A stretch of 64,000 nucleotides of DNA from an uncultured bacterium (GTDB lineage Bacteria; Patescibacteriota; Saccharimonadia; Saccharimonadales; 2-12-FULL-41-12): positions 327,572 through 391,571 of the forward strand of contig CAWIAU010000001.1 in the NCBI GenBank assembly GCA_963834265.1, given 5' to 3'. This document shows, piece by piece, positions 29,001 to 55,550 of this stretch (position 1 is its first letter; the number at the start of each line of letters is the position of its first letter). The position numbers and the translations under genes are program-made. The notes beneath the pieces are model-generated. The model was not told where the DNA came from. It ran no database searches and saw only the letters and a program-made list of their open reading frames with translations.

Positions 29001-32000
29001 GCAGGCGATATTAATAGCGGCATACTTGGCGTTGCCCGAGGAGGTAGCGGAGCAGGAACCTTTACGGCTAATGGCGTTTTGTTTGGTAACGGTACAAGCG
29101 CATTAGGTGTTACAGCCGCCGGAACAACCGGCCAGTGTTTGCTGGCTACCACAAGTGCAGCTCCGAGCTGGGGCACTTGCACAGGAGTTGGTAGTGGTGT
29201 TACCAGCATAGATGGCCAGACTGGTGCGGTCAGTATTAATAATGCCACCGGCACAGGCGCCGTTATCACAATTGACGATGCCACTACTACAACTAAGGGC
29301 ATAGCCAGTTTCGCGTCGGCTGACTTCGATGTTTCAGCCGGTGCTATTACCTTGGATACGGTCGTAACAAAGCAGGGCAACACCTTTAACGGTGTTAGCC
29401 AACTCATTCAAACAACTGCCGCCGGCGCTTTCCCAGCACTAAGTGGTGTTAATATTACTAACCTAAACGGAACCAATGTTAACAGTGGCCTTGTAGGTGT
29501 GGCATATGGTGGAACGGGTATTTCTACGGTGCCAACCAACGGGAAACTCCTCATCGGTAATGGTACCGGTTATGCTTCGGCTAACCTGACATCGTCTAAC
29601 TCCAGCGTTACGATCACTAACGGCGCTGGCACAATCGACCTCGTTGTGCCTGGCGCCGGTACTTGTGGCTCCTGTGTAGCTCTGAAAGCTACTACTCCGG
29701 ATACTGCTCAGACCGGACATATCAATGTTTCCGGGACTATTATCGCCGGATTCTTCCAAGGTAATGGTAGCAACCTGACTAACCTGGATGCTGGTGATAT
29801 TAACAGCGGCATTCTCCTGGTGGGTCGCGGCGGCACAGGTATTACTACAACTCCTACCAACGGCCAGCTTCTTATAGGCAATGGCACTAATTATACCGCC
29901 GCTAACCTTACTTCAAATGACTCGACAGTGGTCATAACTAATGGTTCCGGCACTATTAACCTGAGCGCTCCAGGTTCAGGTACTTGCGCCGCATGTGTTT
30001 CGTTGCAACCTACCACCGGATCTCCACAGACAGGCCACATTAACGTTAGCGGTACTGTTACTGCTGGTAACTTCAGCGGTGTCGGCACTAATTTAACATC
30101 TCTAAATGGCTCAAGCATCAGTAGTGGCACGGTCATAGCAACCGTAGGAGGTACCGGTCATACTACCTATGCTATAGGCGATCTTCTGTATGCCAATACC
30201 ACAACTTCACTTGCCCGCAGGGCCGCCGTAGCCATAGGCTCATGCCTAATCTCACAAGGTGTCTCAACTGCTCCTATCTGGGGTAGTTGTGGCAGTGGCG
30301 TAAACGCTATCGGGACCTTCGACAGTAATGGTTCCGGTGCCCAAGGCGCGACCATTAGTGGTAGCAGCTTATTTTTGCAAAGCGCCACTGCCAGCGTACC
30401 TGGGTTGGTAAATACTAGTGGCACTCAGATTTTTGGTGGTATTAAGACATTCAACGGAATCATTAATGCCAACGCCACAGGCAAAACAGCCATCCAGATC
30501 GCTGACTCAGGCGGGCAGAGCTCAGGAATAACTATTGGCGGGGATACTAATTTGTATCGTTCAGCTGGTAGTACCTTAAGAACGGACACCACTTTTACTG
30601 CAGGAAATAGCATTGTTTCGTATCAAGGAACAACTGCTCAAATATCACTTCAAAATAATATTCCTACACCCGGTTTACCCACAATTTATTTCGGCAACGC
30701 CCAAGACACTAACCTTTATAGATCAGGAGGTGGCACCCTAAAAACCGATGGTAACTTCGAAGCAAACAATATACTGCTTCCTAGCGGAGGCATATTGCAA
30801 AGTACTGGCTACTTACAACTTATTTCTGGTGCTACGAATGACCAGATACTGTTTAAGTCGAATGGAGGGACTGTTGAAAACGCACGATTTAATAGCTCGG
30901 GTGTGTTCGTTTTGGGCCCGACAAATCAAATTGGTTGGAGCGCTTCAGGTGGCTCGGGTACACCAGACACTAATCTCTATCGGGCAGCGGCGGGCAATTT
31001 GCTGAAAACTGATGACAGTTTTGAAGCTATCGGTACCATTAACTCTGTCGGTGGTTATCAAGCCAACGGGGTTTCGGGCATATCCGCGACTTGCGCTGCC
31101 GGGGAAGCTTTGCAGGGGGCTACGATCAGCGGGGGCATAGTTACGGCCGGTACATGCGTAAGTAATGCCGATGCCAGTGCGCGGGTAACGCATAATGCCA
31201 GCCAATCAGTGAACTCTACTCTCGCTGCTTTAGTTTTCAACACAGAAACATACGATACTAATAATCTCCATTCTACTTCAAGCAACACCTCTCGCCTTAC
31301 CGCGCCGGTCGCTGGTACCTATGTGATTTCCGCTGGAGTTACCTTCAGTGATGGGAACGAGGATAGAAACTTGCAGATTAGGCTAAACGGCACTACAACC
31401 TACATATCAAAAGACTCTTTGGATTCTCAGGCCTCAGGCTCAATGACAACAACGACTACTTATTACTTGAACGCGAATGATTACGTAGAAGTTATGGCTT
31501 CTTCAACAGGTCTCAGCGAAACTGTAGCCGCTAACTCCGTCTCTCAACCACTTTATTTCTCTATGACTAAAGTTGGCAGCAGCAGTGGCGGCGGTGGCGG
31601 CGGCGGCGATCTTCAAGCTGCTTATAACTTATCTGGTTCACCGGCAACTATCGCCACTACTTCTACGCTAAAAGATATTATATTTAAATCTGGCGTTGGC
31701 TTCGATGCTCCCAACTTCTTCCGTATACAAAATGGTGCTGGCGTAGAGTTCTTTAGCGCCAACTCTACTAACGGACGAATAGGGTTGGGTACGATCAGTC
31801 CATCCATGAGATTACATATTCAAGGAAACGACTACCTGTCATCTTCATTAATGTTAGACAGGTCATCATCAGACGATCTTTCCTCAGAAATTAGATTCCA
31901 TAAATCAAGGGGAACGCCCACTTCTCGAACCGATGTTTTAGCTAATGATTTGGTTGCTCGTATGACAGGCTATGGATATAAAGACGGTGCTTATCGAGAT

Positions 32001-33200
32001 GTCGGGTATATTAATATAAATGCTGAGAGCACGGGCACGAACGAAGTTGGCGGAAAGTTTAGCGTAACGCTTTATGATCCTGTAGATAATGTTATGTATG
32101 ACAGGTTGAATATACGTCAAAACGGTAGAGTAGGAATAGGAACTGTTAATCCTGGTTCTCGCCTTGAAGTTTACGCGTATGACGCAGGTTCGACTGCGGA
32201 TGCCTTTATAATCTCCACCGATGTTGGTGGAGCACAAGACAAAAAGTTCAAGGTTCGTGGCGACGGTAACGTATATGCCGACGGCTCGTACAACTGCGGT
32301 TTAGGCGGTAGTTGCTTTAACTCTGGTATTGGAGCTGATGTTGCTGAGAAATACCGTAATCATGACGGATCGGAACCCGGCGACGTTCTAGTATTTAGCA
32401 GTAAAGATACGGTAGTAAAGAGCAGTCAGCCTAAACAAGTAAGGTTGGCCGGTGTTGTATCAACAACCCCAGGAGTAGTTTTGGCAAGTGACACCGAGGG
32501 TGTAGCTCTGGCATTATCGGGCCGGGTTCCTGTAAAAGTCACTAATGAGGGAGGTCCGATCCTGCCCGGTGATTACCTGACTAGTTCATCAACTCCAGGC
32601 AAGGCAATGAAAGCTATCGGAACCGGACAAGTCATAGGCCAAGCGCTAGAAGGACTTTCCGGTGCGTCGGGTACAATCGAAATGTTTGTAAACAACACGT
32701 ATTACAATCCTGCCAGCGCTCAAGAACTACAAGGCGGAGGAGAAGGAAACTTTACTGGTTTGAACGTTAGCGGCTTAACCACGCTAGAAGACCTTAAAGT
32801 AACCGGAACAGCAACAGTCGGAACATTGGTGGTTACAGGAAACGCAACCTTTAAGGGAAATATAATTATCGAAGGCCACATTATTACATCCGGAACTACT
32901 CCTGCCGGAAATGTGCTGGGCGCAGCGGGTGTTGGTGGATCAGTTAGCATAGAAGGTAACGATACGGCTGGAACCATTACCGTAACCACTGGCTCAGCTC
33001 CATCTGCAGGAGAATTAGCTAACGCTGTATTCAGCAAGACTTTTGGTAAAAAGCCGAACATTAACCTTACTCCCGTTTCCGAAGCAGCTGCCGCAGCAGA
33101 TTACTACTACACATCAACTCCCCAGGACTTCAAGCTCAAATTCAGCAGCCTGCCACTACCGAACACAGTGTATGTATACTCATATTTCACAGTTGAATAA
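20067..33200 (+). CDS. giant surface fibre-like repeat protein 2 (4377 aa), type II anchored
   Basis: An uninterrupted 13.1-kb ORF. It has a ~95-aa polar N-terminal tail followed by a TM segment (aa ~98-119). It carries an 864-bp tandem array, a C1q/TNF-like jelly-roll-type segment, a Gly run and a C-terminal module shared with giant 3. Confidence 0.9.
20437..21086 (+). repeat. 650-bp dispersed repeat, identical to 34654..35303 (5' region of giant gene 3)
   Basis: I compared the nucleotide lines directly at several points. The encoded 216 aa are identical in both ORFs. Confidence 0.9.
21841..23253 (+). repeat. tandem repeat block A, 864-bp (288-aa) unit, ~1.6 copies
   Basis: Unit starts at 21841 and 22705. 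The second copy is truncated at 23253 by a 737-bp unique insert. Confidence 0.9.
23991..27562 (+). repeat. tandem repeat block B, the same 864-bp unit, ~4.1 copies, no differences seen
   Basis: Unit phase at 23989, 24853, 25717, 26581 and 27445. Antisense ORFs at 24149, 25013, 25877 and 26741 are identical. Confidence 0.9.
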
Positions 33201-33369: not shown

Positions 33370-34194
33370 ATGCGGTACAAAATAACGCTCAAACATACAG
33401 TTCTTCCGTTACTGTTATTTTCTATTACAGCTGCGATAATAATTGTCAGTATATCAGCACATGCAATAACCAGGGGTTATTTATCAGATGATGACGGGTT
33501 GCAACCGGGCATGCTGGTTAAAATAAGTGACGATAGCAATCCTGATACGCCTAAAGTCGAACGGGCTACGCTCGATCAAGCCGATAAAATCATTGGTGTG
33601 GCCACTACCACCGGTGAAAGCACAGTTACAATAGCTTCAGCTGATCAGTCGGTATATGTAGAAACTACCGGAGAAGTTAATGCTTATGTTTCTGATATGT
33701 TCGGGGAAGTAAAAGAAGGTGATTTATTAGTGGTCTCGCCGCTAAATGGCGTAATGGCGAAATATACAAGTGGCGCAGCAGTTATATTCGCGCTGGCGCT
33801 GGAAGATTCTGCGCCCAAATCCGGCGACTCGTACGAAATCCAAACTCCGGAGGGCAAAAAAAACACAAAACTTAGTCTGATAAAGGTTAACTTGGATCAA
33901 AAGGGCTCGGATGGATTGAGTAAAGTCCCCACATCATTGGAAAAACTTGGCAAATCTATTACAGGCAAAGAAGTTAACGAGTTGCGAGTAATTGTGGCTT
34001 TGCTTATATTTATTATTGTTTTGATCGTTGAGGGGGCAATATTGTATGGGTCTATCTCCAGTGCGGTTACCTCGATAGGACGAAATCCGTTGGCTAGCAA
34101 GGTAATTAGGCGAGAACTTATCAAGGTCATGACAATCGCATTCCTGGTTATGTTGATAGGGCTGGGCTCTATCTATCTTGTTCTGTGGGTATAA
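33370..34194 (+). CDS. membrane protein (N-terminal anchor plus 2 C-terminal TM helices) carrying the module found near the C-termini of giants 2 and 3
   Basis: 274 aa. The segment GMLVKIS...IGVATT...GEVNAYVSDMFGEVKEGDLLVVSPLNGVMAKY...ALALE aligns with GDVLVFS...AGVVSTTPG...[32 protein letters not shown]...GQALE of giant 2. Confidence 0.8.
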   Translation: MRYKITLKHTVLPLLLFSITAAIIIVSISAHAITRGYLSDDDGLQPGMLVKISDDSNPDTPKVERATLDQADKIIGVATTTGESTVTIASADQSVYVETTGEVNAYVSDMFGEVKEGDLLVVSPLNGVMAKYTSGAAVIFALALEDSAPKSGDSYEIQTPEGKKNTKLSLIKVNLDQKGSDGLSKVPTSLEKLGKSITGKEVNELRVIVALLIFIIVLIVEGAILYGSISSAVTSIGRNPLASKVIRRELIKVMTIAFLVMLIGLGSIYLVLWV

Positions 34195-34352: not shown

Positions 34353-37300
34353 ATGAAAACAGATTCGGCCTTTGGGTCGAACGTAAAACATGACGTTTCC
34401 GGCAACGTTATTCGGGCTGATATATACGAATCGGTTAGTGATTTGACGACCCAAAAGTATCCGGAAACGGATTCGCTGGAAGTTCACGACCTAAACCAGA
34501 ATACACGATACTCATATCCGCAGGATGATGCTCAAATTTCTACGAAGCAACTTATGGCCATATCGCCAAAAAGGGCTGTCCTGATAGCCACGATCATTAC
34601 GGGTATTGTTCTGGTTATTACAGTTTTTTCCTCTATCTTACTTGGCCGTAACAGTATCTCCGACCAAAACCGTCACCAGGCCCCCTCCCAGCAGATAGAT
34701 ATCAAAGTAACTAACAACGAATCTACTCCTCCTGAACTCACCGGAGCTCAGGAATCTCTCCTCGTCAGCGGTGACATTATCACCAAAGGTAACTTCAAGG
34801 TCAGTAGCAAAGGCTACATCACCATCCTGAGCCCTGACAACCTGACAGCTGATCAGGCCTATACACTACCAGACTCTTCCGGAGTCTTCTGTCTCAGCAG
34901 TAACAACTGTAGCTATGGTGGTCTGGCAGAACTCACCAAAGCTCAGGCAGATATTGCCGGTCTGCAGAACAGTCTGGGGCAGATTGTTATCCCGTCTGCC
35001 CAGACTTTTCCGGCTGTTCCGCCCTCCAGTCTAATCAACAATCAACGGGGAGCTGTAAGCATACAGGGTACCTCCAATCAGATCTCAGTCACGACAGGTA
35101 GTGGTGTCATAACACTGGCTACTCCCCAGGATCTGGCAACTGTCAGCTCCCCCGGCTTTGCCAGCCTGTTCCTGTCCGGCAATCTCACCGTCAACGGCAA
35201 CCTGACTTTACCTCTGAACTGTAGCACCAGTGCCAATGGCGGTACTCTGACCACCACAGCAGGAGGACAGGTTATCTGTGCCGATGATGACGGGGGAGCT
35301 GGCGCAGCAATCAATGGTTCCGGCACTGTCGGCACTCTGGCGGTCTTTACTGCCGCCCAGACAATTGCCTCACTGACCGGTCCGTCTGACGGCCAGATCC
35401 TCCTCGGCAACGGCACTACACCGACATTCACTACCATCGGCGGTGACGCAACTGTCAGCGGGGCGGGAACAGTCACCATTCAGGCCAATGCTGTGGCCTT
35501 GGGAGTCGATACAACAGGGAATTACGTAGCAGACATTACCGCCGGCAACGGTATCAGTGTCACCGGCGGAGCAGCAGAAGGCAGTACGCCTACAGTAAGC
35601 GTGGTCTACGGCTCAGCCGCTAACACAGCAGTACAGGGTAATACTGTTCTGACCTGTCCGGCCGGATCCGGCAATCTGACGGGAGGAGGTAATAACGTAA
35701 CCCTAGGAGCGGGGGGCTCCTGCGGAGCTTTGAGTGTAGTGGGGAGTCCTATGTTTAGCGGTACATTAGCCGTTCAGGGTGCAACGATAACAATTGGAAC
35801 AGCTGCACAGCAGGGAACTCTAATACTTAATGACGGGTCTTCGAATACAGGGAGCCTGGCAGTATCAGCCTTGGGGCAGGATACGTTATATACTTTGCCG
35901 GATGCCGGCGGAGGCACAGCTACAATATGTCTGAGTACCGGCAACTGTCTGGGTGGTGGTGCCGGCGGTGCGAATACCGCTCTCAGCAACCTTACCAGCG
36001 TAGCAATCAACACCAGCTTATTAAGTGGTTCGGCTACTATTGATCTTGGCTCACAGACTAATCCGTTCCGCGATTTGTATCTCGGTGGCACAGGTACCAA
36101 CAATTTTCGCATTACCGGCACAGCCACTGTGCCGAGGACTATTACGATACCTGACGCTACAGGAGATATATGTCTGAGTAGTGGCAACTGCGCCGGCGTA
36201 GGTGGTACCGGAGATATAGTTGGTAATGGCACAAGCGGTACTATCGCCCGATTTAGTGGCACCAAGAGCATCGTAGACTCTATTATTACGGAATTAGGCA
36301 ATACTATTACAGTGACAGGTACTCTCAATGCGACAACTGCGTTACAAACGGCCGGTACAACTCGTATTACCAGCGGAGGTGTATTACAAAATGTCAGCAA
36401 TGCCGACGCTTCCAACTTCTTTACCGGTGGAGCTCTGTCTGTTGCCCGCGGCGGTACTGGGACAGGATCTACTCCTACCAACGGACAACTATTGATAGGG
36501 AATGGCACCGGCTATACGCTCGCTACTCTGGCTTCCGGTGATTCCACAGTAACTATTACCAATGGTTCAGGCACGATTGATCTGAGTGTTCCATTGGCCG
36601 GTACCTGCGCCGCCTGCGTAGCATTGCAGGGCGCGACGCCGGGAATTGCTCAGACTGGGCATATTAATATTACCGGCACTATTATTGCCGGCTTCTTTAG
36701 CGGCAACGGTACTTCCCTGAATAACCTGGCAGCTGGTGCTATCACGACCGGTACACTCAACGACACTCGTCTCAGCGGCAATGTTTCATTACTTGGCCAG
36801 ACTATCGGGCTCGCCGAGCTGGAAGCTGACTCCGTCAATGGCAGCAAGGTTGTCGATGGCTCCATTGGTAATATCGATCTGACGAATCCCGGCCTGAGTG
36901 TTTCGGCTGGCGGAGGATTGATTAACGGCGGCCTAGTGAATCTCGGCGCATCCGTCACTCTTAATATAGGAGCAGGTGATGGAATCACGGTCAATGCTGA
37001 TGACGTGGCTGTCGATGCTACCGTTTGCCGCACGACAGGCAACTGTCTGGGTGGACCGGGTGGTGGAGCGAGTGTTTCATTATCCAATCTAGCTTCCGTA
37101 GCCATTAACACCAGCCTGCTGTCCGGCTCAGCTACAATTGACCTTGGCAGCAATACCAATCCGTTCCGCGACCTCTACGTAGGCGGTACTGCTACCAATA
37201 ACATCCGTATCACCGGCACATCAGCCGGAGCCCGTGTCTACACCCTGCCTGATGTCGGCAGTGCCGCTGATTTCTGTCTGAGCACCGGCAACTGCGTCGG

Positions 37301-40300
37301 TGGGGCAGGTGGCGCACCAAATAGCGCTGCTTACTTAACTATTGGCAACAATGCTACATTAACCGGTGAACGAGCTATTACAGCCGGCACCAACCTCAGT
37401 GCGGTAGATGGCGGCGCTGACGGCGCCTACACCCTGAATGTCGTAAACAACCCGACGTTCTCCGGTCTTATTACCGCCCAGGCCGGCATAAGCGTCACTG
37501 CCGGCCAGACCCTGACCGTCAACGGTGACGCCTTCACCGATCTGACCGGCACCGGCCTGACCATTACCGGCGGAGCACTACAGGCCAGTCTCGGTACCAG
37601 TGTAGACCTTACAACAGAAGTTACCGGTACTTTACCGGTAACAGGCGGCGGTACCGGCCAGACCAGCTACACTGACGGCCAGCTGTTGATTGGTAACAGT
37701 GTCGGCAATACTCTCAGCAAAGCTACCTTAACCGCCGGTGTCGGCGTCAATATTGTCAACGGCAACGGTACAATCACTATTAGTTCTCCCGGCTCCGGTA
37801 CCTGTGCTGCGTGTGCGAACACCTCTCTGAGTAACCTCGCTTCCGTAGCCATTAACACCAGCCTGCTGTCCGGCTCAGCTATAATTGACCTTGGCAGCAA
37901 TACCAATCCGTTCCGCGACCTCTACGTAGGCGGTACTGCTACCAATAACATCCGTATCACCGGCACATCAGCCGGAGCCCGTGTCTACACCCTGCCTGAT
38001 GTCGGCAGTGCCGCTGATTTCTGTCTGAGCACCGGCAACTGCGTCGGTGGGGCAGGTGGCGCACCAAATAGCGCTGCTTACTTAACTATTGGCAACAATG
38101 CTACATTAACCGGTGAACGAGCTATTACAGCCGGCACCAACCTCAGTGCGGTAGATGGCGGCGCTGACGGCGCCTACACCCTGAATGTCGTAAACAACCC
38201 GACGTTCTCCGGTCTTATTACCGCCCAGGCCGGCATAAGCGTCACTGCCGGCCAGACCCTGACCGTCAACGGTGACGCCTTCACCGATCTGACCGGCACC
38301 GGCCTGACCATTACCGGCGGAGCACTACAGGCCAGTCTCGGTACCAGTGTAGACCTTACAACAGAAGTTACCGGTACTTTACCGGTAACAGGCGGCGGTA
38401 CCGGCCAGACCAGCTACACTGACGGCCAGCTGTTGATTGGTAACAGTGTCGGCAATACTCTCAGCAAAGCTACCTTAACCGCCGGTGTCGGCGTCAATAT
38501 TGTCAACGGCAACGGTACAATCACTATTAGTTCTCCCGGCTCCGGTACCTGTGCTGCGTGTGCGAACACCTCTCTGAGTAACCTCGCTTCCGTAGCCATT
38601 AACACCAGCCTGCTGTCCGGCTCAGCTATAATTGACCTTGGCAGCAATACCAATCCGTTCCGCGACCTCTACGTAGGCGGTACTGCTACCAATAACATCC
38701 GTATCACCGGCACATCAGCCGGAGCCCGTGTCTACACCCTGCCTGATGTCGGCAGTGCCGCTGATTTCTGTCTGAGCACCGGCAACTGCGTCGGTGGGGC
38801 AGGTGGCGCACCAAATAGCGCTGCTTACTTAACTATTGGCAACAATGCTACATTAACCGGTGAACGAGCTATTACAGCCGGCACCAACCTCAGTGCGGTA
38901 GATGGCGGCGCTGACGGCGCCTACACCCTGAATGTCGTAAACAACCCGACGTTCTCCGGTCTTATTACCGCCCAGGCCGGCATAAGCGTCACTGCCGGCC
39001 AGACCCTGACCGTCAACGGTGACGCCTTCACCGATCTGACCGGCACCGGCCTGACCATTACCGGCAACGCCCTGGCCAGCACTCTCGGCACCTCCGTCGA
39101 TCTGAACAGTGCCGAAGTAACCAACACCCTGCAGCTTGGTAACGGCGGCACCGGCGCCACCACCTCCCAGGCGGCGATTAACAATATCTCCCAGCTGACC
39201 ACGGAAGGTGATCTCTTATTCAGAAATGCTACCAACTCTACCCGGCTGGCCCGGGGCACCAACGGCCAGTGCCTGACTTCCAATGCCACGACTGTCGTCT
39301 GGGGTACCTGCCAGCCCGGCGGTTCCGGCGTCACAACCATCGGCGCCCTAGACGGCGGCACGGCCAACGCCAACGGCGCGACCATCAGCGGCGTCAACCT
39401 CTTCCTCCAGAGCGCCGACGCCTCCTTCGCCGGCCTGGTCAACACCGGCACTCAGACTTTTGCCGGTGCCAAGACGTTCACCGGCAACGCTATCCTGCAG
39501 GGCGATACGACCATCGGCGACGCCGGTACTGATCTCCTGACTATTAGCGCGACTATACAGGGAGCTAACCCGTTAGTCTTTGAAGGCGCCACAGCCGACG
39601 GCTTCGAAACCACTCTGGCTATAGCAGATCCGACGGCTGACGTTACCTACCGGTTCGCGTCGACTACCACCGGTACCTACGACATTTGTACTACTACCGG
39701 CAACTGCGTCGGCGCTGGAGGCGGAACGGCTCCCAATAACGGCGAGTACATTACCTACAGTGCTAATGCCACCTTGTCAGCCGAGCGGGTACTGACCGGC
39801 GGCAGTAACATCAGTGCCATAGATCTCGGTACGCCCGGTCAGGCTATTATTAATGTCGCTAGCGCCCCAACCTTCACCGGCCTGCTAAGTGCCAACGGCG
39901 GCTTAACCGTTGAAGCGGGGGATACCTTTACCGTCAACGGTGACGCCTTCACCGATCTGACCGGCACCGGCCTGACCATTACCGGCAACGCCCTGGCCAG
40001 CACTCTCGGCACCTCCGTCGATCTGAACAGTGCCGAAGTAACCAACACCCTGCAGCTTGGTAACGGCGGCACCGGCGCCACCACCTCCCAGGCGGCGATT
40101 AACAATATCTCCCAGCTGACCACGGAAGGTGATCTCTTATTCAGAAATGCTACCAACTCTACCCGGCTGGCCCGGGGCACCAACGGCCAGTGCCTGACTT
40201 CCAATGCCACGACTGTCGTCTGGGGTACCTGCCAGCCCGGCGGTTCCGGCGTCACAACCATCGGCGCCCTAGACGGCGGCACGGCCAACGCCAACGGCGC

Positions 40301-43300
40301 GACCATCAGCGGCGTCAACCTCTTCCTCCAGAGCGCCGACGCCTCCTTCGCCGGCCTGGTCAACACCGGCACTCAGACTTTTGCCGGTGCCAAGACGTTC
40401 ACCGGCAACGCTATCCTGCAGGGCGATACGACCATCGGCGACGCCGGTACTGATCTCCTGACTATTAGCGCGACTATACAGGGAGCTAACCCGTTAGTCT
40501 TTGAAGGCGCCACAGCCGACGGCTTCGAAACCACTCTGGCTATAGCAGATCCGACGGCTGACGTTACCTACCGGTTCGCGTCGACTACCACCGGTACCTA
40601 CGACATTTGTACTACTACCGGCAACTGCGTCGGCGCTGGAGGCGGAACGGCTCCCAATAACGGCGAGTACATTACCTACAGTGCTAATGCCACCTTGTCA
40701 GCCGAGCGGGTACTGACCGGCGGCAGTAACATCAGTGCCATAGATCTCGGTACGCCCGGTCAGGCTATTATTAATGTCGCTAGCGCCCCAACCTTCACCG
40801 GCCTGCTAAGTGCCAACGGCGGCTTAACCGTTGAAGCGGGGGATACCTTTACCGTCAACGGTGACGCCTTCACCGATCTGACCGGCACCGGCCTGACCAT
40901 TACCGGCAACGCCCTGGCCAGCACTCTCGGCACCTCCGTCGATCTGAACAGTGCCGAAGTAACCAACACCCTGCAGCTTGGTAACGGCGGCACCGGCGCC
41001 ACCACCTCCCAGGCGGCGATTAACAATATCTCCCAGCTGACCACGGAAGGTGATCTCTTATTCAGAAATGCTACCAACTCTACCCGGCTGGCCCGGGGCA
41101 CCAACGGCCAGTGCCTGACTTCCAATGCCACGACTGTCGTCTGGGGTACCTGCCAGCCCGGCGGTTCCGGCGTCACAACCATCGGCGCCCTAGACGGCGG
41201 CACGGCCAACGCCAACGGCGCGACCATCAGCGGCGTCAACCTCTTCCTCCAGAGCGCCGACGCCTCCTTCGCCGGCCTGGTCAACACCGGCACTCAGACT
41301 TTTGCCGGTGCCAAGACGTTCACCGGCAACGCTATCCTGCAGGGCGATACGACCATCGGCGACGCCGGTACTGATCTCCTGACTATTAGCGCGACTATAC
41401 AGGGAGCTAACCCGTTAGTCTTTGAAGGCGCCACAGCCGACGGCTTCGAAACCACTCTGGCTATAGCAGATCCGACGGCTGACGTTACCTACCGGTTCGC
41501 GTCGACTACCACCGGTACCTACGACATTTGTACTACTACCGGCAACTGCGTCGGCGCTGGAGGCGGAACGGCTCCCAATAACGGCGAGTACATTACCTAC
41601 AGTGCTAATGCCACCTTGTCAGCCGAGCGGGTACTGACCGGCGGCAGTAACATCAGTGCCATAGATCTCGGTACGCCCGGTCAGGCTATTATTAATGTCG
41701 CTAGCGCCCCAACCTTCACCGGCCTGCTAAGTGCCAACGGCGGCTTAACCGTTGAAGCGGGGGATACCTTTACCGTCAACGGTGACGCCTTCACCGATCT
41801 GACCGGCACCGGCCTGACCATTACCGGCAACGCCCTGGCCAGCACTCTCGGCACCTCCGTCGATCTGAACAGTGCCGAAGTAACCAACACCCTGCAGCTT
41901 GGTAACGGCGGCACCGGCGCCACCACCTCCCAGGCGGCGATTAACAATATCTCCCAGCTGACCACGGAAGGTGATCTCTTATTCAGAAATGCTACCAACT
42001 CTACCCGGCTGGCCCGGGGCACCAACGGCCAGTGCCTGACTTCCAATGCCACGACTGTCGTCTGGGGTACCTGCCAGCCCGGCGGTTCCGGCGTCACAAC
42101 CATCGGCGCCCTAGACGGCGGCACGGCCAACGCCAACGGCGCGACCATCAGCGGCGTCAACCTCTTCCTCCAGAGCGCCGACGCCTCCTTCGCCGGCCTG
42201 GTCAACACCGGCACTCAGACTTTTGCCGGTGCCAAGACGTTCACCGGCAACGCTATCCTGCAGGGCGATACGACCATCGGCGACGCCGGTACTGATCTCC
42301 TGACTATTAGCGCGACTATACAGGGAGCTAACCCGTTAGTCTTTGAAGGCGCCACAGCCGACGGCTTCGAAACCACTCTGGCTATAGCAGATCCGACGGC
42401 TGACGTTACCTACCGGTTCGCGTCGACTACCACCGGTACCTACGACATTTGTACTACTACCGGCAACTGCGTCGGCGCTGGAGGCGGAACGGCTCCCAAT
42501 AACGGCGAGTACATTACCTACAGTGCTAATGCCACCTTGTCAGCCGAGCGGGTACTGACCGGCGGCAGTAACATCAGTGCCATAGATCTCGGTACGCCCG
42601 GTCAGGCTATTATTAATGTCGCTAGCGCCCCAACCTTCACCGGCCTGCTAAGTGCCAACGGCGGCTTAACCGTTGAAGCGGGGGATACCTTTACCGTCAA
42701 CGGTGACGCCTTCACCGATCTGACCGGCACCGGCCTGACCATTACCGGCAACGCCCTGGCCAGCACTCTCGGCACCTCCGTCGATCTGAACAGTGCCGAA
42801 GTAACCAACACCCTGCAGCTTGGTAACGGCGGCACCGGCGCCACCACCTCCCAGGCGGCGATTAACAATATCTCCCAGCTGACCACGGAAGGTGATCTCT
42901 TATTCAGAAATGCTACCAACTCTACCCGGCTGGCCCGGGGCACCAACGGCCAGTGCCTGACTTCCAATGCCACGACTGTCGTCTGGGGTACCTGCCAGCC
43001 CGGCGGTTCCGGCGTCACAACCATCGGCGCCCTAGACGGCGGCACGGCCAACGCCAACGGCGCGACCATCAGCGGCGTCAACCTCTTCCTCCAGAGCGCC
43101 GACGCCTCCTTCGCCGGCCTGGTCAACACCGGCACTCAGACTTTTGCCGGTGCCAAGACGTTCACCGGCAACGCTATCCTGCAGGGCGATACGACCATCG
43201 GCGACGCCGGTACTGATCTCCTGACTATTAGCGCGACTATACAGGGAGCTAACCCGTTAGTCTTTGAAGGCGCCACAGCCGACGGCTTCGAAACCACTCT

Positions 43301-46300
43301 GGCTATAGCAGATCCGACGGCTGACGTTACCTACCGGTTCGCGTCGACTACCACCGGTACCTACGACATTTGTACTACTACCGGCAACTGCGTCGGCGCT
43401 GGAGGCGGAACGGCTCCCAATAACGGCGAGTACATTACCTACAGTGCTAATGCCACCTTGTCAGCCGAGCGGGTACTGACCGGCGGCAGTAACATCAGTG
43501 CCATAGATCTCGGTACGCCCGGTCAGGCTATTATTAATGTCGCTAGCGCCCCAACCTTCACCGGCCTGCTAAGTGCCAACGGCGGCTTAACCGTTGAAGC
43601 GGGGGATACCTTTACCGTCAACGGTGACGCCTTCACCGATCTGACCGGCACCGGCCTGACCATTACCGGCAACGCCCTGGCCAGCACTCTCGGCACCTCC
43701 GTCGATCTGAACAGTGCCGAAGTAACCAACACCCTGCAGCTTGGTAACGGCGGCACCGGCGCCACCACCTCCCAGGCGGCGATTAACAATATCTCCCAGC
43801 TGACCACGGAAGGTGATCTCTTATTCAGAAATGCTACCAACTCTACCCGGCTGGCCCGGGGCACCAACGGCCAGTGCCTGACTTCCAATGCCACGACTGT
43901 CGTCTGGGGTACCTGCCAGCCCGGCGGTTCCGGCGTCACAACCATCGGCGCCCTAGACGGCGGCACGGCCAACGCCAACGGCGCGACCATCAGCGGCGTC
44001 AACCTCTTCCTCCAGAGCGCCGACGCCTCCTTCGCCGGCCTGGTCAACACCGGCACTCAGACTTTTGCCGGTGCCAAGACGTTCACCGGTCTCCTGACCG
44101 GCCAGGCCGGCGCTACTGTCTCCGGCGCAGCCATCAATCTCAATGCTTCCTCCAACTTTGATACCAACATCAATACCGGTACCAGTACGGGAACGGTCAG
44201 TATTGGTAATGCTTCAAATGCTAACAATACCGTCACTCTTCAGGCGGGAGCCACCGGAGGTATCAACCTTAACTCTGCTTCCGTCAATAGCAATGCCGCA
44301 ACTTTGGCCCTCTTCGCTAGTCCGACTAGCATTACCTTGGGAGCGGCTGCAGCTACGTTCAACATCGGACCAGCGGGTGCTAGTGCGGCCACGATCGCTA
44401 TTGCTGGCGGCTCTGGGGCTACTGGCTGTACCGTAGACGGAGCTACCGGCAACCTAGTCTGTACCGGAACAATTACCAGTACTGCCGGTACGGCCGCCGT
44501 TGGTTACTTCACTCGCTCAGGTACTACACTCCAACCAGCTACAGCAGGCGATAGCATTCAAACTTCTGGTAACTTAGCTACTACGGGTACAGGGACAATC
44601 ACTGCCGCCGGCATCCTAAACGCCAGTGCCACTGGCAAAACTGCAATCACAGTCGCTGATTCAGGAGCTCAGAACTCAGGAATTACTATAGGTGGCGACA
44701 CCAACCTCTATCGCAGTGCCGCTGATACGCTTCGTACTGACGACAATTTCAAAATCCAAACACTTACGAACTCCACCACCGCCTTCCAGATCCAGAATGC
44801 TAATGCTTCATCTAATCTCTTTACCGCTGATACTGTCAACAGTCGGATCGGTATAGGAACGGCCACCCCCACGAAACTATTGGATATTGCATATGGCAAC
44901 CTCAACTTTACTACAGTTCCGGCTCCGGGTGCGCTAACTGCCACAGTTAGTGCTACCGCCGGTAACCTAAACGGCACATATAAATACTGGGTTACTTATG
45001 TGACAGAAGACGGTGAGACTAACCTGGGTACGGCCTCCGCTACCGTCTCTCCCGCAAGCAAGCAGGTTAACCTCACCAACATTCCTGTCAGCGGGCTCTC
45101 CCGAGTGACCGCTCGCAAGATTTACCGTACTGATGGGGTTATTAACTATAATGCTTATTTCCTAACTACTCTTAGCGACAATACCACCACGGTATATACG
45201 GATAACATTGCTGACGGTTCGTTGCCACCGACCCTTTATCAAATCCGGGGCAATACTACCAGTGGCCGACTGTTTGTTGACAATGACCAAGTCTTTTATT
45301 CTGAACCCACTACAATAAGCCTCGGTGTCGGTAGGGGTGCGCTAGGTGTTAACCTCGGTCGGCACAACGTGGCAGTTGGGCCGAACGCTCTGGGGCAAAA
45401 TACCACCGGCGAATTTAACAGTGCCGTAGGCTCGGGTGCCCTCTACGGAACCACCACCGGTTACTATAACAATGCCTTTGGCTATCAGTCGCTGCAGAAT
45501 AACACCGTTGGCTACGAAAACAGTGCCTACGGCTATGGTTCGATGATAAATAATGTCAGCGGTTTCCAGAATACCGCCATCGGTAACTATACCCTCGTCA
45601 ACACCACCGGCTCCAAAAATACCGCTCTTGGCTACAAAGCAGGCGAAACTTCTGTCGGTGCCAACGCCAACACCACTGGCACCGGTAACACATTTGTTGG
45701 TCACAACTCTGGTCCAGGTGTTGTTTCTGCCTCTAGCCTTCAGAATGCCACTGCCATAGGCATTAACTCTGTTGTTTCCCAAAATGACTCATTAATTCTC
45801 GGTTGCATCAATGGACTAAATGGCTGTACAGCTACTACAAAAATCGGTATTGCAGATGCCGTACCCTCAACCTTACTATCTCTTGGTGGCACCGGCGTAG
45901 CAAATGGTATAACGCTTGGAGATGACGCGGCTCAATCAGTAAACCTTTATCAGGCTGGCAGCAATTTATTGCAAACAGATGACGATTTTATTGTAGGAGG
46001 CGATGATTTTTACCTTGGCTCAACAAGTGGGATCCGTCTAAGCCGCGAAAATAATGATGAACTTAGGCTTTATACTTCTGCTGGCGAGCAACTTCGTATT
46101 AATGCAACCAATATATACGCACTGAATAATAATATTCTTGCTAATAACGCTGGCACGGGCTTCGCTAAAGTGGCTGTCGCGACTGACGATACTAATAAAG
46201 TGGGTGTTGCAATCCGAGGTGAAGCTGGCCAGACTGCCGACCTATTGCAAGTTCAAAACAGTGCTGGAACAGTATTAGGCGGCTTTAGCGCCCTCGGCCG

Positions 46301-48200
46301 GCTTGGGGTAGGTACGGCGCCGAATTCTAGCCCAAGTAACGACGGTATCCTGCTGGGAGGTAGCAGCGATTATTCACGCATAACTAACCTTGGCTATGGT
46401 ACATCAATAGATTTTGGCTATGTTCCCGCAACCGGTATGGCGGCCGGCGATATGAGCCTTATTGCTGGCAATGTCGGTACCTCCATGAGCGTGGGTGTCT
46501 CCTTAAACTACACGGGAGCCTCCTTCAAAGTTATTCAAAATGCTGCATCGGCCACTACTCCGGTAACAATTATAAAAGGCGGAGCTACGCCAGGTGGGGG
46601 CAGCGACCTCTTACAGTTCCAAAATTCCGCCGGTACTATCCTCACTGCTTTTCAGACGGACGGCAAGCTGGTTTTTGGTCCTTCCGGTAACCAAGATACA
46701 AACTTATATCGTTCAAACTCAAACATTCTCAAAACCGATGATTCACTTACAGTTGCTGGTGGACTGACAGTTAGCAGTTTGGCTAATTGTACTAGCGTTC
46801 AGACAAATGCCAATGGTGACTTTTCTTGCGGAAGTCCTGCTCTTCCTGATACAGCCGCTTTTGTCGACTCTACTTCTGATACGCTTAACGACAGTAGCCA
46901 ATCCCTCTGGGACGGTACCCAGCCTAACATTACGCCTACGGCTAGTTCACAAACAGTGCTTGTATCGGTATCTATCAAGATAGATTCGGCCGGCACAGAT
47001 GACGAAGTCAACCGATTCCAGATATATCGCAGCACTACTGGCTCCGATGCTACCTGTTCCAGCACTGCCGTAGGTGGGACGTTTGGTGCCCGTACTACGG
47101 ATAATGCGAATCAATTCGACAACGCCACGGTTACATTCCTAGATAGTCCGGGCGTTGCTAGCCAAGTTCGCTATACGGTTTGTGAAAGCACAGAATCAAC
47201 AGCTGCAGGTGCCGTCAATAATACTACTCCCCAAATTGATTTCAGCCTTGTAGCACTTGGCGCTGACTTGGCTGAGAACTATTACACAACCGACAATAGC
47301 CTTTCAGCCGGACATGTGGTCAGCCTGGATACAGGACTTCCTGCCGGAGTAAAGAAAAGTGGTAGCGCTTACGATCAAGCCATTGGAGTAGTTTCAACAA
47401 CGCCTGGATATGTCCTTGATGACCGAATAGGCGAAGGATTTGGCCGTCCGGTACCTATCGCGCTTGCGGGACGCGTGCCGGTAAAAGTTTCGGACGAGGG
47501 CGGAGCGATACGAGCGGGTGATTATCTAGTAGCTTCATCTACGCCCGGAGTAGCTATGAAAGCCACCCAGCCAGGCCGAATTATTGGTACAGCCATGAGT
47601 GACTTTAGTGGATCTGGCGAAGGGCAGGTAATGATATTTGTACACACCGGGTACGCAGACCCCAATAGCAATGCTGGGATTAACGATATACAAGGTAATT
47701 CTACTATATCCGGAAATCTGGATGTTCTGGGAATTGCTACCTTTGAATCACTAAATGTAAGTGGTCATACAACTTTGGAGAGCCTGAGCGTGACTGGTAA
47801 TGTGTCCGTTGGAGGCAATCTGACCGTTGCGGGAGACACAAGTTTCAAGGGTAATATAATCGTCGAGGGACATATTGTTTCTGCTGGCAATGCACCAGTA
47901 GCAATGGTCCTAGGTGATAATTCAGCAGGTGCAGTAATTACGATAGAGGGCAACGATACGGCAGGGACTATCACGATTAAAACGAGTACTGGCAGCATAA
48001 TTTCTGGCGAGTTGGCTAAAGTAATCTTTAATAAGCCATTTAGTAGTGCGCCTAGAATAATTCTTTCAGGACAAGACGCTAAAACCCTTGACGCCAAAAT
48101 ATTCCCTAGTCAGAAGACAGCTGACAAATTTGTACTAAAAACAGCGGAGGTGTTGCCCGCTAACACTATAATAACGCTGGACTATTTTATCCTAGAATAG
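34353..48200 (+). CDS. giant surface fibre-like repeat protein 3 (4615 aa), type II anchored
   Basis: An uninterrupted 13.8-kb ORF with a ~75-aa N-terminal tail followed by a TM segment (aa ~75-97). It carries 747-bp and 921-bp tandem arrays, a YadA-head-like 14-residue repeat region and a C-terminal module shared with giant 2. Confidence 0.9.
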   Translation: MKTDSAFGSNVKHDVSGNVIRADIYESVSDLTTQKYPETDSLEVHDLNQNTRYSYPQDDAQISTKQLMAISPKRAVLIATIITGIVLVITVFSSILLGRNSISDQNRHQAPSQQIDIKVTNNESTPPELTGAQESLLVSGDIITKGNFKVSSKGYITILSPDNLTADQAYTLPDSSGVFCLSSNNCSYGGLAELTKAQADIAGLQNSLGQIVIPSAQTFPAVPPSSLINNQRGAVSIQGTSNQISVTTGSGVITLATPQDLATVSSPGFASLFLSGNLTVNGNLTLPLNCSTSANGGTLTTTAGGQVICADDDGGAGAAINGSGTVGTLAVFTAAQTIASLTGPSDGQILLGNGTTPTFTTIGGDATVSGAGTVTIQANAVALGVDTTGNYVADITAGNGISVTGGAAEGSTPTVSVVYGSAANTAVQGNTVLTCPAGSGNLTGGGNNVTLGAGGSCGALSVVGSPMFSGTLAVQGATITIGTAAQQGTLILNDGSSNTGSLAVSALGQDTLYTLPDAGGGTATICLSTGNCLGGGAGGANTALSNLTSVAINTSLLSGSATIDLGSQTNPFRDLYLGGTGTNNFRITGTATVPRTITIPDATGDICLSSGNCAGVGGTGDIVGNGTSGTIARFSGTKSIVDSIITELGNTITVTGTLNATTALQTAGTTRITSGGVLQNVSNADASNFFTGGALSVARGGTGTGSTPTNGQLLIGNGTGYTLATLASGDSTVTITNGSGTIDLSVPLAGTCAACVALQGATPGIAQTGHINITGTIIAGFFSGNGTSLNNLAAGAITTGTLNDTRLSGNVSLLGQTIGLAELEADSVNGSKVVDGSIGNIDLTNPGLSVSAGGGLINGGLVNLGASVTLNIGAGDGITVNADDVAVDATVCRTTGNCLGGPGGGASVSLSNLASVAINTSLLSGSATIDLGSNTNPFRDLYVGGTATNNIRITGTSAGARVYTLPDVGSAADFCLSTGNCVGGAGGAPNSAAYLTIGNNATLTGERAITAGTNLSAVDGGADGAYTLNVVNNPTFSGLITAQAGISVTAGQTLTVNGDAFTDLTGTGLTITGGALQASLGTSVDLTTEVTGTLPVTGGGTGQTSYTDGQLLIGNSVGNTLSKATLTAGVGVNIVNGNGTITISSPGSGTCAACANTSLSNLASVAINTSLLSGSAIIDLGSNTNPFRDLYVGGTATNNIRITGTSAGARVYTLPDVGSAADFCLSTGNCVGGAGGAPNSAAYLTIGNNATLTGERAITAGTNLSAVDGGADGAYTLNVVNNPTFSGLITAQAGISVTAGQTLTVNGDAFTDLTGTGLTITGGALQASLGTSVDLTTEVTGTLPVTGGGTGQTSYTDGQLLIGNSVGNTLSKATLTAGVGVNIVNGNGTITISSPGSGTCAACANTSLSNLASVAINTSLLSGSAIIDLGSNTNPFRDLYVGGTATNNIRITGTSAGARVYTLPDVGSAADFCLSTGNCVGGAGGAPNSAAYLTIGNNATLTGERAITAGTNLSAVDGGADGAYTLNVVNNPTFSGLITAQAGISVTAGQTLTVNGDAFTDLTGTGLTITGNALASTLGTSVDLNSAEVTNTLQLGNGGTGATTSQAAINNISQLTTEGDLLFRNATNSTRLARGTNGQCLTSNATTVVWGTCQPGGSGVTTIGALDGGTANANGATISGVNLFLQSADASFAGLVNTGTQTFAGAKTFTGNAILQGDTTIGDAGTDLLTISATIQGANPLVFEGATADGFETTLAIADPTADVTYRFASTTTGTYDICTTTGNCVGAGGGTAPNNGEYITYSANATLSAERVLTGGSNISAIDLGTPGQAIINVASAPTFTGLLSANGGLTVEAGDTFTVNGDAFTDLTGTGLTITGNALASTLGTSVDLNSAEVTNTLQLGNGGTGATTSQAAINNISQLTTEGDLLFRNATNSTRLARGTNGQCLTSNATTVVWGTCQPGGSGVTTIGALDGGTANANGATISGVNLFLQSADASFAGLVNTGTQTFAGAKTFTGNAILQGDTTIGDAGTDLLTISATIQGANPLVFEGATADGFETTLAIADPTADVTYRFASTTTGTYDICTTTGNCVGAGGGTAPNNGEYITYSANATLSAERVLTGGSNISAIDLGTPGQAIINVASAPTFTGLLSANGGLTVEAGDTFTVNGDAFTDLTGTGLTITGNALASTLGTSVDLNSAEVTNTLQLGNGGTGATTSQAAINNISQLTTEGDLLFRNATNSTRLARGTNGQCLTSNATTVVWGTCQPGGSGVTTIGALDGGTANANGATISGVNLFLQSADASFAGLVNTGTQTFAGAKTFTGNAILQGDTTIGDAGTDLLTISATIQGANPLVFEGATADGFETTLAIADPTADVTYRFASTTTGTYDICTTTGNCVGAGGGTAPNNGEYITYSANATLSAERVLTGGSNISAIDLGTPGQAIINVASAPTFTGLLSANGGLTVEAGDTFTVNGDAFTDLTGTGLTITGNALASTLGTSVDLNSAEVTNTLQLGNGGTGATTSQAAINNISQLTTEGDLLFRNATNSTRLARGTNGQCLTSNATTVVWGTCQPGGSGVTTIGALDGGTANANGATISGVNLFLQSADASFAGLVNTGTQTFAGAKTFTGNAILQGDTTIGDAGTDLLTISATIQGANPLVFEGATADGFETTLAIADPTADVTYRFASTTTGTYDICTTTGNCVGAGGGTAPNNGEYITYSANATLSAERVLTGGSNISAIDLGTPGQAIINVASAPTFTGLLSANGGLTVEAGDTFTVNGDAFTDLTGTGLTITGNALASTLGTSVDLNSAEVTNTLQLGNGGTGATTSQAAINNISQLTTEGDLLFRNATNSTRLARGTNGQCLTSNATTVVWGTCQPGGSGVTTIGALDGGTANANGATISGVNLFLQSADASFAGLVNTGTQTFAGAKTFTGNAILQGDTTIGDAGTDLLTISATIQGANPLVFEGATADGFETTLAIADPTADVTYRFASTTTGTYDICTTTGNCVGAGGGTAPNNGEYITYSANATLSAERVLTGGSNISAIDLGTPGQAIINVASAPTFTGLLSANGGLTVEAGDTFTVNGDAFTDLTGTGLTITGNALASTLGTSVDLNSAEVTNTLQLGNGGTGATTSQAAINNISQLTTEGDLLFRNATNSTRLARGTNGQCLTSNATTVVWGTCQPGGSGVTTIGALDGGTANANGATISGVNLFLQSADASFAGLVNTGTQTFAGAKTFTGLLTGQAGATVSGAAINLNASSNFDTNINTGTSTGTVSIGNASNANNTVTLQAGATGGINLNSASVNSNAATLALFASPTSITLGAAAATFNIGPAGASAATIAIAGGSGATGCTVDGATGNLVCTGTITSTAGTAAVGYFTRSGTTLQPATAGDSIQTSGNLATTGTGTITAAGILNASATGKTAITVADSGAQNSGITIGGDTNLYRSAADTLRTDDNFKIQTLTNSTTAFQIQNANASSNLFTADTVNSRIGIGTATPTKLLDIAYGNLNFTTVPAPGALTATVSATAGNLNGTYKYWVTYVTEDGETNLGTASATVSPASKQVNLTNIPVSGLSRVTARKIYRTDGVINYNAYFLTTLSDNTTTVYTDNIADGSLPPTLYQIRGNTTSGRLFVDNDQVFYSEPTTISLGVGRGALGVNLGRHNVAVGPNALGQNTTGEFNSAVGSGALYGTTTGYYNNAFGYQSLQNNTVGYENSAYGYGSMINNVSGFQNTAIGNYTLVNTTGSKNTALGYKAGETSVGANANTTGTGNTFVGHNSGPGVVSASSLQNATAIGINSVVSQNDSLILGCINGLNGCTATTKIGIADAVPSTLLSLGGTGVANGITLGDDAAQSVNLYQAGSNLLQTDDDFIVGGDDFYLGSTSGIRLSRENNDELRLYTSAGEQLRINATNIYALNNNILANNAGTGFAKVAVATDDTNKVGVAIRGEAGQTADLLQVQNSAGTVLGGFSALGRLGVGTAPNSSPSNDGILLGGSSDYSRITNLGYGTSIDFGYVPATGMAAGDMSLIAGNVGTSMSVGVSLNYTGASFKVIQNAASATTPVTIIKGGATPGGGSDLLQFQNSAGTILTAFQTDGKLVFGPSGNQDTNLYRSNSNILKTDDSLTVAGGLTVSSLANCTSVQTNANGDFSCGSPALPDTAAFVDSTSDTLNDSSQSLWDGTQPNITPTASSQTVLVSVSIKIDSAGTDDEVNRFQIYRSTTGSDATCSSTAVGGTFGARTTDNANQFDNATVTFLDSPGVASQVRYTVCESTESTAAGAVNNTTPQIDFSLVALGADLAENYYTTDNSLSAGHVVSLDTGLPAGVKKSGSAYDQAIGVVSTTPGYVLDDRIGEGFGRPVPIALAGRVPVKVSDEGGAIRAGDYLVASSTPGVAMKATQPGRIIGTAMSDFSGSGEGQVMIFVHTGYADPNSNAGINDIQGNSTISGNLDVLGIATFESLNVSGHTTLESLSVTGNVSVGGNLTVAGDTSFKGNIIVEGHIVSAGNAPVAMVLGDNSAGAVITIEGNDTAGTITIKTSTGSIISGELAKVIFNKPFSSAPRIILSGQDAKTLDAKIFPSQKTADKFVLKTAEVLPANTIITLDYFILE
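34654..35303 (+). repeat. 650-bp dispersed repeat, identical to 20437..21086
   Basis: See the partner copy. The offset between copies is 14217 bp. Confidence 0.9.
37092..39065 (+). repeat. tandem repeat, 747-bp (249-aa) unit, ~2.6 copies (one SNP at 37145)
   Basis: Unit phase at 37087, 37834 and 38581. Antisense ORFs 37667..37906 and 38414..38653 are identical. Confidence 0.9.
39009..44089 (+). repeat. tandem repeat, 921-bp (307-aa) unit, ~5.5 copies, no differences seen
   Basis: Unit starts at 39009, 39930, 40851, 41772, 42693 and 43614. Five identical 177-aa antisense ORFs are spaced 921 bp apart. Confidence 0.9.
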
Positions 48201-49232
48201 GTGAAATAGAAAATACAGATAACTCTCAGAGTAACCTATAGCTGGACTTTTACAGAAGTATAACCAGAATATCTGGTAAATTTATTGGGGCCGACAATAT
48301 AGTCTATGTAAAATTGATTATGACTAGGTAAATATGTAAGTTTAGCTATACCACCCAAACTGTTACCATACGAATATGCCTTCTCCGGCTCGGAATATTT
48401 GGAATACCGGTGCCTGTGTCCAAGTGGCATATTGCGATTTTATTACTGTGATTAGTAATAGCGGATAATATTTATATTTGACCCGAAATTGAGCGAATAT
48501 TGTTGCCAAAGACATTTGGTATTGGTGAGTTCAACATTTTCATCTCCTATAACGTCCCGTCTGCCACTTATTGGTATGTCCCTTGTTTGATTCCCCGCAA
48601 GAAAAAGCTTCCGAGGGCAGTACCTGTATATAGTTGATCCGCTGCTGCCGGCAACGCTATCCACGTACTGCTTATGACGGCTTGGAGCTCAGAGGACGAT
48701 GGATCAAAAGCTTTAATATTTTATTTCAATTGTTCTGGCCTGGTTATTAAGGCACATATGGCAGGTCCTGTAATAATTCTTTATCGATTGTTTATACTTT
48801 TGATCTGGGTTATTAATCTAAAAAAATTTGGATAAAACGGCAATAACTACAGTTAGAGCTGAAATAATGGCCAACTAATTAAAAAAGGATACAAGCTGTT
48901 TGTACTCCCCCACATTCAATGTATACAATACATTCCAGAACCATAAATATAACCATACAAAAAAGAGCAACAAATTCCCGCTCTAAGGATATATCATATA
49001 AATAAGCAACAATTACAAATCGGGCAGGCTTAAGGCCACTAAGTAGTGCAAACAACACAACAAGCTCCGGTTTTCAGTCTCGTCAACCATTTACTGATGT
49101 ATTCACTAGCTAAAACGTGGGTAATGGTGTTAGTAAAATAAGAGTAGTATTATACGGCTAGTAACAGATACGTTCAATGATTTACGTCACAACTATTTCG
49201 TGCTAGGATGAGGGCTATAGGATGTACTGACA

Positions 49233-53449: not shown

Positions 53450-53457
53450 ACAGTATT

Positions 53458-55546: not shown

Positions 55547-55550
55547 CGTT

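Follow-up and report, generated by a model that had tools for sequence, protein, structure and literature searches.

Why should a single gene of an uncultured Saccharimonadales bacterium carry two different kilobase-scale tandem arrays back to back, and what is the role of the short segment at which they meet? We addressed this question in a 64,000-nucleotide stretch of contig CAWIAU010000001.1 (GenBank assembly GCA_963834265.1, positions 327,572 to 391,571 of the forward strand), hereafter the window. The window holds three giant genes, here numbered 1 to 3. Giant 3 contains the array R3, built from 747-bp units, followed by the array R4, built from 921-bp units, and both unit types carry the same 57-bp core. 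A reading of the letters alone (the original prediction) had proposed that the core is a recombination joint that seeds or bounds arrays in giants 2 and 3, and that about 7 kb of giant 3 is evolving by gain and loss of units. Our analysis leads us to consider it probable that R3 and R4 are recently amplified paralogous modules of an anchored surface protein, joined via the core as a patch of homology.

Self-comparison of the DNA at fixed lags reproduced the predicted extents of both arrays and their meeting within the core (Table 1). At a lag of 747 the sequence matches itself at every position but one between 37092 and 38318. At a lag of 921 it is exact from 39009 to 43168, with 0 mismatches over 4160 compared positions, which upholds the earlier remark that the R4 copies show no differences. 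The sole polymorphism in R3 is the Thr/Ile change that had been noted, although its position is 37135 and not 37145. Both periods are divisible by three, the open reading frame (ORF) remains open across both arrays, and the overlap of R3 and R4 is exactly the 57-bp core. A chance origin of repeats that are exact over kilobases is excluded. The encoded protein is identical to a database entry (P0101, NCBI/ENA). On the minus strand, a GTG-start ORF of 176-177 amino acids (aa) lies opposite every R4 unit (38921-44056); it most likely reflects the GC-rich, codon-biased composition of the repeat and not a gene.

Table 1 Coordinates of the giant genes, their arrays and the segments discussed in the text (positions in the window)
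Feature	Position	Strand	Description
Giant gene 1	4372..14574	+	3400 aa; no core motif
Giant-1 array	5502..6641	+	exact 408-bp (136-aa) unit, 2.8 copies
Giant gene 2	20067..33200	+	4377 aa; paralogue of giant 3
Giant-2 core-like segment	21708..21833	+	R4-type; homology to R4 stops inside the core after GTG(L)
Giant-2 array	about 21832..27570	+	864-bp units, 6-7 copies, unit cores 100% identical (repeat search, lag analysis)
Giant gene 3	34353..48200	+	single ORF, 4615 aa, rich in Thr/Gly/Ala/Ser/Asn, holds both arrays in frame (ORF list, translation, composition)
Predicted N-terminal membrane anchor of giant 3	34557..34652	+	aa 69-100, AVLIATIITGIVLVITVFSSILL; sole giant-3 segment at or above 1.6 (Kyte-Doolittle)
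Older diverged R3-type module pieces	35919..36616	+	60-67% identical to R3 units, upstream of R3 (sensitive self-blastn, repeat search)
Array R3	37092..39065	+	747-bp (249-aa) unit, 2.64 copies, 1974 bp, one difference (lag-747 identity, repeat search)
Sole R3 polymorphism	37135	+	C in copy 1 (ACA, Thr928), T in copies 2 and 3 (ATA, Ile)
R3 part homologous to R4	38031..38426	+	versus 39696-40096 and repeats, 66.5% identical, perfect 57 bp inside (self-blastn, codon alignment)
Junction core copy	39009..39065	+	R3-type sequence upstream, R4-type downstream (exact-match search, four-way alignment)
Array R4	39009..44089	+	921-bp (307-aa) unit, 5.52 copies, 5081 bp, no differences (lag-921 identity)
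Segment at R4 3' end	44086..44188	+	88% identical to giant 1 8981-9083; peptide LLTGQAGATVSGAAINLNASSNF (inter-gene blastn)

The exact 57-mer occurs eight times in giant 3 (starts 37515, 38262, 39009, 39930, 40851, 41772, 42693 and 43614), so that every copy of both unit types holds it, as had been predicted. When the junction copy was aligned with one R3 and one R4 copy, it proved R3-like until the core and R4-like beyond it, and in the four-way alignment the identity between R3 and R4 begins and ends abruptly at both core edges. The units are paralogous modules, homologous over approximately 400 bp (self-blastn) or 130-180 aa in the protein alignment. The wider shared peptide of the original prediction (PTF.GL...LGTSVDL) is present, and the homology in fact extends well past it. 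Within the core, 19 of 19 codons are identical between R3 and R4, compared with 28 of 78 (36%) at identical residues outside it (P ~3.5e-9). Codon usage in the R3 core resembles that of R4, while A/T-ending codons are commoner in the R3 flanks, and the paralogous core of giant 2 differs from that of giant 3 at several synonymous sites. Since all core codons match while third positions vary freely elsewhere, the 57-bp identity between unit types that are otherwise ~55-66% identical implies exchange at the DNA level and not peptide constraint alone. The pattern indicates a recent homologous exchange, either a crossover or a conversion tract.

Between genomes, the core has a different character. 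From approximately 30 other loci we collected 44 distinct DNA versions, in which the frequency of the majority base is 0.89, 0.98 and 0.47 at codon positions 1, 2 and 3, respectively. Because the third positions are unconstrained among genomes, a sequence-specific recombination site is excluded, and the core is conserved as a peptide, by selection on the protein, and not as a DNA site. It is the most conserved peptide element of its family. A profile search with the core found 265 proteins among 1.84 billion representatives, giant 3 among them; many are 2000-5400 aa long with 3-21 matched stretches, and the sequence context before and after the core differs among proteins. Giant 3, with its eight copies, falls within the family as defined by at least one core in a large Gly/Thr/Ala-rich Patescibacteria protein; giant 2 has one copy and giant 1 none. 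Nearly all of the 18 genome loci with a core come from metagenome-assembled genomes (MAGs) of Saccharibacteria or Patescibacteria. The exact 57-mer gave no matches in metagenome contigs, and a degenerate 12-aa core motif found nine metagenome loci and one IMG/VR locus, none of them a close relative. There was no match to the core motif in 50,697 phage genomes. The arrays of relatives have other periods and ages (624-1761 bp, 70-100% identical), and in the older ones (loci L006, L008 and L022) the core is located within diverged units. We also considered a DNA hairpin in the core that stalls replication and set it aside after borderline support: the 57-mer itself gave z-scores of -2.2 and -2.0, and its surroundings gave -2.7 at the junction and +0.27 in R4.

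Switches between module types occur 2-7 codons past GTGL in four independent places: the R3/R4 junction, giant 2, and two unrelated assemblies, L029 (protein P0100) and L011. In giant 2, R4-type sequence yields to the 864-bp unit just past the core. The giant-2 core segment is closer to R4 (84.9% over 21712-21830, 91.8% over 21708-21817) than to R3 (only 69-73%), and the array starts at 21832-21841, which is 4-7 codons past GTGL. Thus, the earlier statement that a version of the core lies at the start of this array was correct in that a core-like segment precedes it, while the identity of about 88% is replaced by the values above and the array itself begins downstream. In L029, a contig from JGI, units of 1245 bp are present in approximately five copies that are 99.6% identical, and the first copy is set apart by a different module of 1035 bp, flanked by 119-bp identical core repeats. 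In L011, a Saccharibacteria MAG, an 853-bp repeat of 100% identity ends in ...DLTGTGLVI, after which the copies diverge. Other module borders lie in other conserved motifs (LSNL, KTFTG, GRIT...ITG and EITNGT), and, when tested, breakpoints of module homology fell at short conserved motifs. A better generalization is that modules are joined at the margins of short motifs under protein constraint, of which the core is the strongest.

Comparison of the three giant genes with each other revealed further junctions. Giants 2 and 3 share 98% identity over 709 bp (20437-21145 versus 34654-35362), just past the membrane anchor, whereas their extreme N-termini differ; this points to a recent event between the two paralogues, either gene conversion or a partial duplication. 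The segment that resembles giant 1 starts exactly where R4 ends, after QTFAGAKTFTG, and forms another mosaic junction. The three giant ORFs are mosaics of each other. Within the giant-2 array, one unit (window 22397-23980) is enlarged to 1284 bp by an alternative segment of 420 bp with 100% identical sequence on either side, and a second switch point lies before SLANTAVT.

We propose that the R3 and R4 modules were each tandemly amplified very recently, presumably when long identical units underwent unequal homologous recombination or replication slippage. Within the core, a crossover or conversion would have fused or homogenized R3-type and R4-type units; its direction and order are our interpretation, and we would place it before the last R3 amplification because all three R3 copies share the core and differ by a single-nucleotide polymorphism (SNP). 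Constraint on the protein would keep the core similar among modules, and for this reason it could act as a recurrent homology patch at which module types are joined. The motifs LSNL..VAIN, QTFxGxKTF, TVDxxGRIT and IDxxEITNGT may play the same joining role at other borders, since only at constrained motifs would diverged modules keep enough DNA identity. The outcome would be a surface fibre of variable length and module composition. Ongoing gain and loss of units, as originally proposed, is plausible from the zero divergence among copies and from the varied periods and ages of the arrays in relatives.

Several observations weigh against this account. The loci with junctions at the core edge came from searching for the core, and are subject to ascertainment bias. 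R3 starts (37092) within an (A)LSNL..VAIN motif and R4 ends (44089) after QTFAGAKTFTG, both outer borders being away from the core; the 3' border of the giant-2 array, the borders of its 420-bp insertion and both borders of the giant-1 array are likewise not at the core. The protein P0108 has a 99% identical 239-aa array that starts at IDxxEITNGT and not at the core. When 17 related, internally repetitive proteins were scanned, borders coincided with the core only in P0100, a result that is weak either way as most borders are fuzzy decays of old repeats. Most borders are elsewhere, and the special status of the core is a matter of degree. Thus, the proposal of a joint that seeds or bounds arrays holds for the DNA-level exchange and the four core-edge switches, and fails for the outer borders of R3 and R4, the giant-1 array, most giant-2 borders and P0108. 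The core would then be one favoured homology patch and not a universal array seed. Copy numbers, and with them gain and loss, are read from a single assembled sequence. The surface fibre itself is deduced from features of the sequence: searches of the giants in Pfam, NCBIfam, PHROGs and PDB sequences gave no meaningful domain assignment, and an AlphaFold2 model of aa 1520-1934 of giant 3 from a 33-row alignment was too poor to interpret (predicted local distance difference test 57.6, predicted template modelling score 0.26). Finally, the model offers no explanation for the strong bias towards C-ending codons in the amplified units.

Could the arrangement have arisen otherwise? The R3-R4 joint falls in a k-mer-sized stretch common to both units, and the reading frame is kept whether the joint is real or not; it might be a chimera made in assembly through the 57-mer, and the copy numbers and the identity of units, at 4160 of 4160 positions in R4, might stem from assembly or polishing. 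In addition, the giants are on record only from NCBI/ENA, while Logan short-read assemblies contain the neighbouring housekeeping proteins as well. We nevertheless regard an assembly artefact as unlikely. Short-read graph assemblers collapse 5.5 identical units of 921 bp, so that a contig of 720 kb with these arrays implies long reads; small differences are retained, namely the SNP in R3 and the variant unit edges in giant 2; and the same architecture is seen in the independent assemblies L029 and L011. Constraint on the peptide might also account for the core by itself, with the two arrays adjacent by happenstance and recombination playing no role. The peptide is extremely conserved across the giants of Patescibacteria, and because every R3 and R4 unit holds a core, any boundary between them must fall near one. 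This is very unlikely given the match of all 19 core codons compared with 36% elsewhere in the alignment, the free variation at synonymous sites in the giant-2 paralogue and in the 44 versions from other genomes, and the abruptness with which identity starts and stops at the two edges. That modules switch at the same few codons in four loci, and that some module homologues carry Mtd_N (PF18454), an N-terminal domain known from a phage protein that owes its diversification to a diversity-generating retroelement (DGR), would suit programmed site-specific cassette switching, of shufflon-like, DGR-like or integrase-driven type, with the core as recognition site. We consider this extremely improbable: Pfam scans of the flanking and inter-giant ORFs of the window detected neither a recombinase nor a reverse transcriptase, the repeats are all direct and none inverted, the core DNA varies between genomes, and self-comparisons revealed no pair of template and variable repeats with adenine-specific differences.

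The codon bias bears on the origin of the modules. GC content at third codon positions (GC3) is 0.72 in R4, 0.73 in the giant-2 array (21831-27569) and 0.59 in R3 (37092-39008). Outside the arrays, these genes have values of 0.41-0.49, and housekeeping genes have 0.39-0.52; GC content at the first and second positions is unchanged. Codons ending in C make up 0.6-0.75 in the R4 and giant-2 arrays, compared with 0.2-0.4. From these values and the R4-like core within R3, the core and the repeat units of R4 and of giant 2 (864 bp) may have been imported from a higher-GC relative by horizontal transfer, integrated through homologous recombination at conserved motifs and then amplified, a scenario that is compatible with our preferred account of amplified, core-joined modules. 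Cultivated Saccharibacteria are naturally competent (PMC10633639), in line with such an import. On the other hand, we found no donor-like DNA, as the exact 57-mer is absent from metagenome contigs and the relatives L030 and L031 have no blastn similarity to the arrays; translation genes are mildly biased in the same direction, so translational selection could be responsible; and the analogous L029 array has no GC3 shift (0.30 versus 0.32-0.35 in its flanks). We consider import doubtful. Nor does L029, with no such shift, support the idea that arrays of this kind generally undergo GC-biased conversion. L030 and L031 were rejected as donors for want of DNA similarity, though a peptide of L030 is about 85% like part of R4. 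The C-ending bias could stem from import, from biased conversion or from translational selection. A bolder proposal, which we think rather unlikely, is that the conserved motifs, the core foremost, would be the joints of a cassette system that re-assorts and amplifies modules of giant tail-fibre-like fibres in epibiotic Saccharibacteria, including modules acquired from other lineages via natural competence; the foreign-looking GC3 of the amplified units would then arise because such modules were taken up from elsewhere. If this were true, fibre length and host specificity would change, in a cellular counterpart of the host-range switching of phage tail fibres.

The features of the giant proteins led us to infer that giant 3 is a surface fibre anchored at its N-terminus. 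A hydropathy scan revealed one N-terminal hydrophobic segment in each of giants 1 and 2, as in giant 3, and the remainder of each protein is rich in Gly, Thr, Ala, Ser and Asn. The Pfam scan of the giants contained no LPXTG or Rib domain, and the scans of the giants and their neighbours revealed no HemolysinCabind (RTX) or type I secretion system (T1SS) families. Weak resemblances to phage adhesion structures were detected: a BppL_N-like QTFAGAKTF sub-motif in the R4 unit (E 3.4e-7 for the whole protein, with no single stretch passing), a partial PHROG tail-fibre match at the C-terminus of giant 2 (2.5e-5), and tblastn matches of the R4 unit to Pelagibacter phage baseplate and tail-fibre proteins (1e-6 and 1e-4) over 16-23% of the unit. 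Giant 3 has hundreds of homologues to its C-terminal 466 aa, most of them annotated as hypothetical, and those with named sources are from Patescibacteria in all but a few cases. The giant proteins plausibly act in attachment to a host cell. A scan for promoters and terminators across giant 3 found nothing above the shuffled expectation.

Giants 1 to 3 are adjacent, with a total of 12,392 aa and approximately 37 kb of coding sequence within 44 kb (4372-48200), or about 5% of the 720,390-bp contig. The ORFs that separate them encode 908, 288 and 274 aa and are blank in Pfam. The 274-aa ORF, at 33370-34194 between giants 2 and 3, has a match to the phage XM1 gp53 minor capsid family at E 0.002, below the cut-off, and the same family is recorded for P0249, a homologue of the C-terminal region of giant 3. 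The flanking genes are ordinary chromosomal ones (IleRS, ParA/ParB, signal peptidase, LytR, HtrA, PrmC, RF1, S2, EF-Ts and RRF). A distant Saccharimonadales MAG (L031, JBATSO010000062.1, positions 1-11982) matches the window from 44000 to 56600 at 41-58% protein identity and shares its gene order (giant gene, parA, parB, signal peptidase, LytR, 250-aa ORF, HtrA and PrmC); the contig of this MAG stops inside the giant gene, as expected where repeats break a short-read assembly. A cluster look-up at 90% identity found no relatives for six window proteins tested, which were all singletons. The names of homologues and the 18 genome loci point to Saccharimonadales and Patescibacteria, and by these indications the organism is a Saccharimonadales-like bacterium of the Patescibacteria with a small chromosome of approximately 720 kb. 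In L029 (JGI 3300056759, Ga0558719_07138, positions 9694-18552), the giant gene is split by indels, which are probably long-read errors, into several called genes (P0100 and P0005), and it adjoins a 2155-aa Kelch/beta-propeller-like protein.

How does this locus compare with known systems? Long identical tandem repeats are found in Gram-positive surface proteins such as the alpha C/Rib family of group B Streptococcus, Esp and Bap, in which whole units are gained and lost by recombination. The arrays of giant 3 are alike in consisting of in-frame, near-identical repeats of hundreds of bp within one ORF of an exported (here predicted) protein. In contrast to alpha C, Rib and Bap, they have no sequence relationship to these proteins (no Rib or adhesin repeat domain in Pfam), a predicted N-terminal membrane anchor takes the place of LPXTG, and two unit types stand back to back in a protein on the scale of 4615 aa, with copy numbers known from one sequence. 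A second parallel lies in phages. Tetart et al. are said to have proposed, in 1998, a 'conserved motif' model for gp37 and gp38 of T-even phages, in which short motifs serve as recombination points for swapping adhesin segments, and Sandmeier reportedly described mosaic phage tail-fibre genes in 1994. Here too, diverged modules lie between short conserved motifs with breakpoints at the motif edges, and some R4 sub-motifs weakly resemble tail-fibre and baseplate proteins. Unlike those systems, the gene is bacterial and chromosomal, near parAB and housekeeping genes, its core has no phage-genome match and one in IMG/VR, and its modules have been amplified to kilobase arrays. The locus also differs from shufflons and DGRs in having no adjacent recombinase or reverse transcriptase in the Pfam scans, DNA recognition site or template/variable pair, and from giant RTX/T1SS adhesins in having no C-terminal RTX or T1SS families in those scans. 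Vampirococcus lugosii encodes ten membrane proteins of 1392-4163 aa with a proposed role in host recognition and attachment (PMC8080830). These resemble the giants described here as very large proteins of predicted membrane location in a tiny genome, but they have known interaction domains (WD40, PKD, integrin and fibronectin), whereas Pfam detects almost no domains in the present giants, which contain long exact arrays and are members of a rare family that is defined by a motif and has 265 representatives. Thus, the pattern of recombination itself, unit amplification with joints at conserved motifs, is already familiar; what we describe is the occurrence of two known phenomena, homogenized long tandem repeats and the joining of modules at motif edges, in an uncharacterized Patescibacteria protein family.

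Patescibacteria rely on attachment to host cells, and to our knowledge little is known of their adhesins beyond type IV pili. The bacterium studied here spends about 5% of a genome of ~720 kb on three giant, recombining, Pfam-blank predicted surface proteins, and the core motif provides a concrete marker by which this rare family of giant proteins can be identified. There is also a practical warning, as short-read MAGs break or collapse at these loci (contigs break in the giant gene of L031 and at L013). Worth following are the shift in codon bias and the potential involvement of these proteins in attachment to the host. If array length or module order varies among strains, the giant genes would deserve consideration as a source of host-range or antigenic variation in epibionts.

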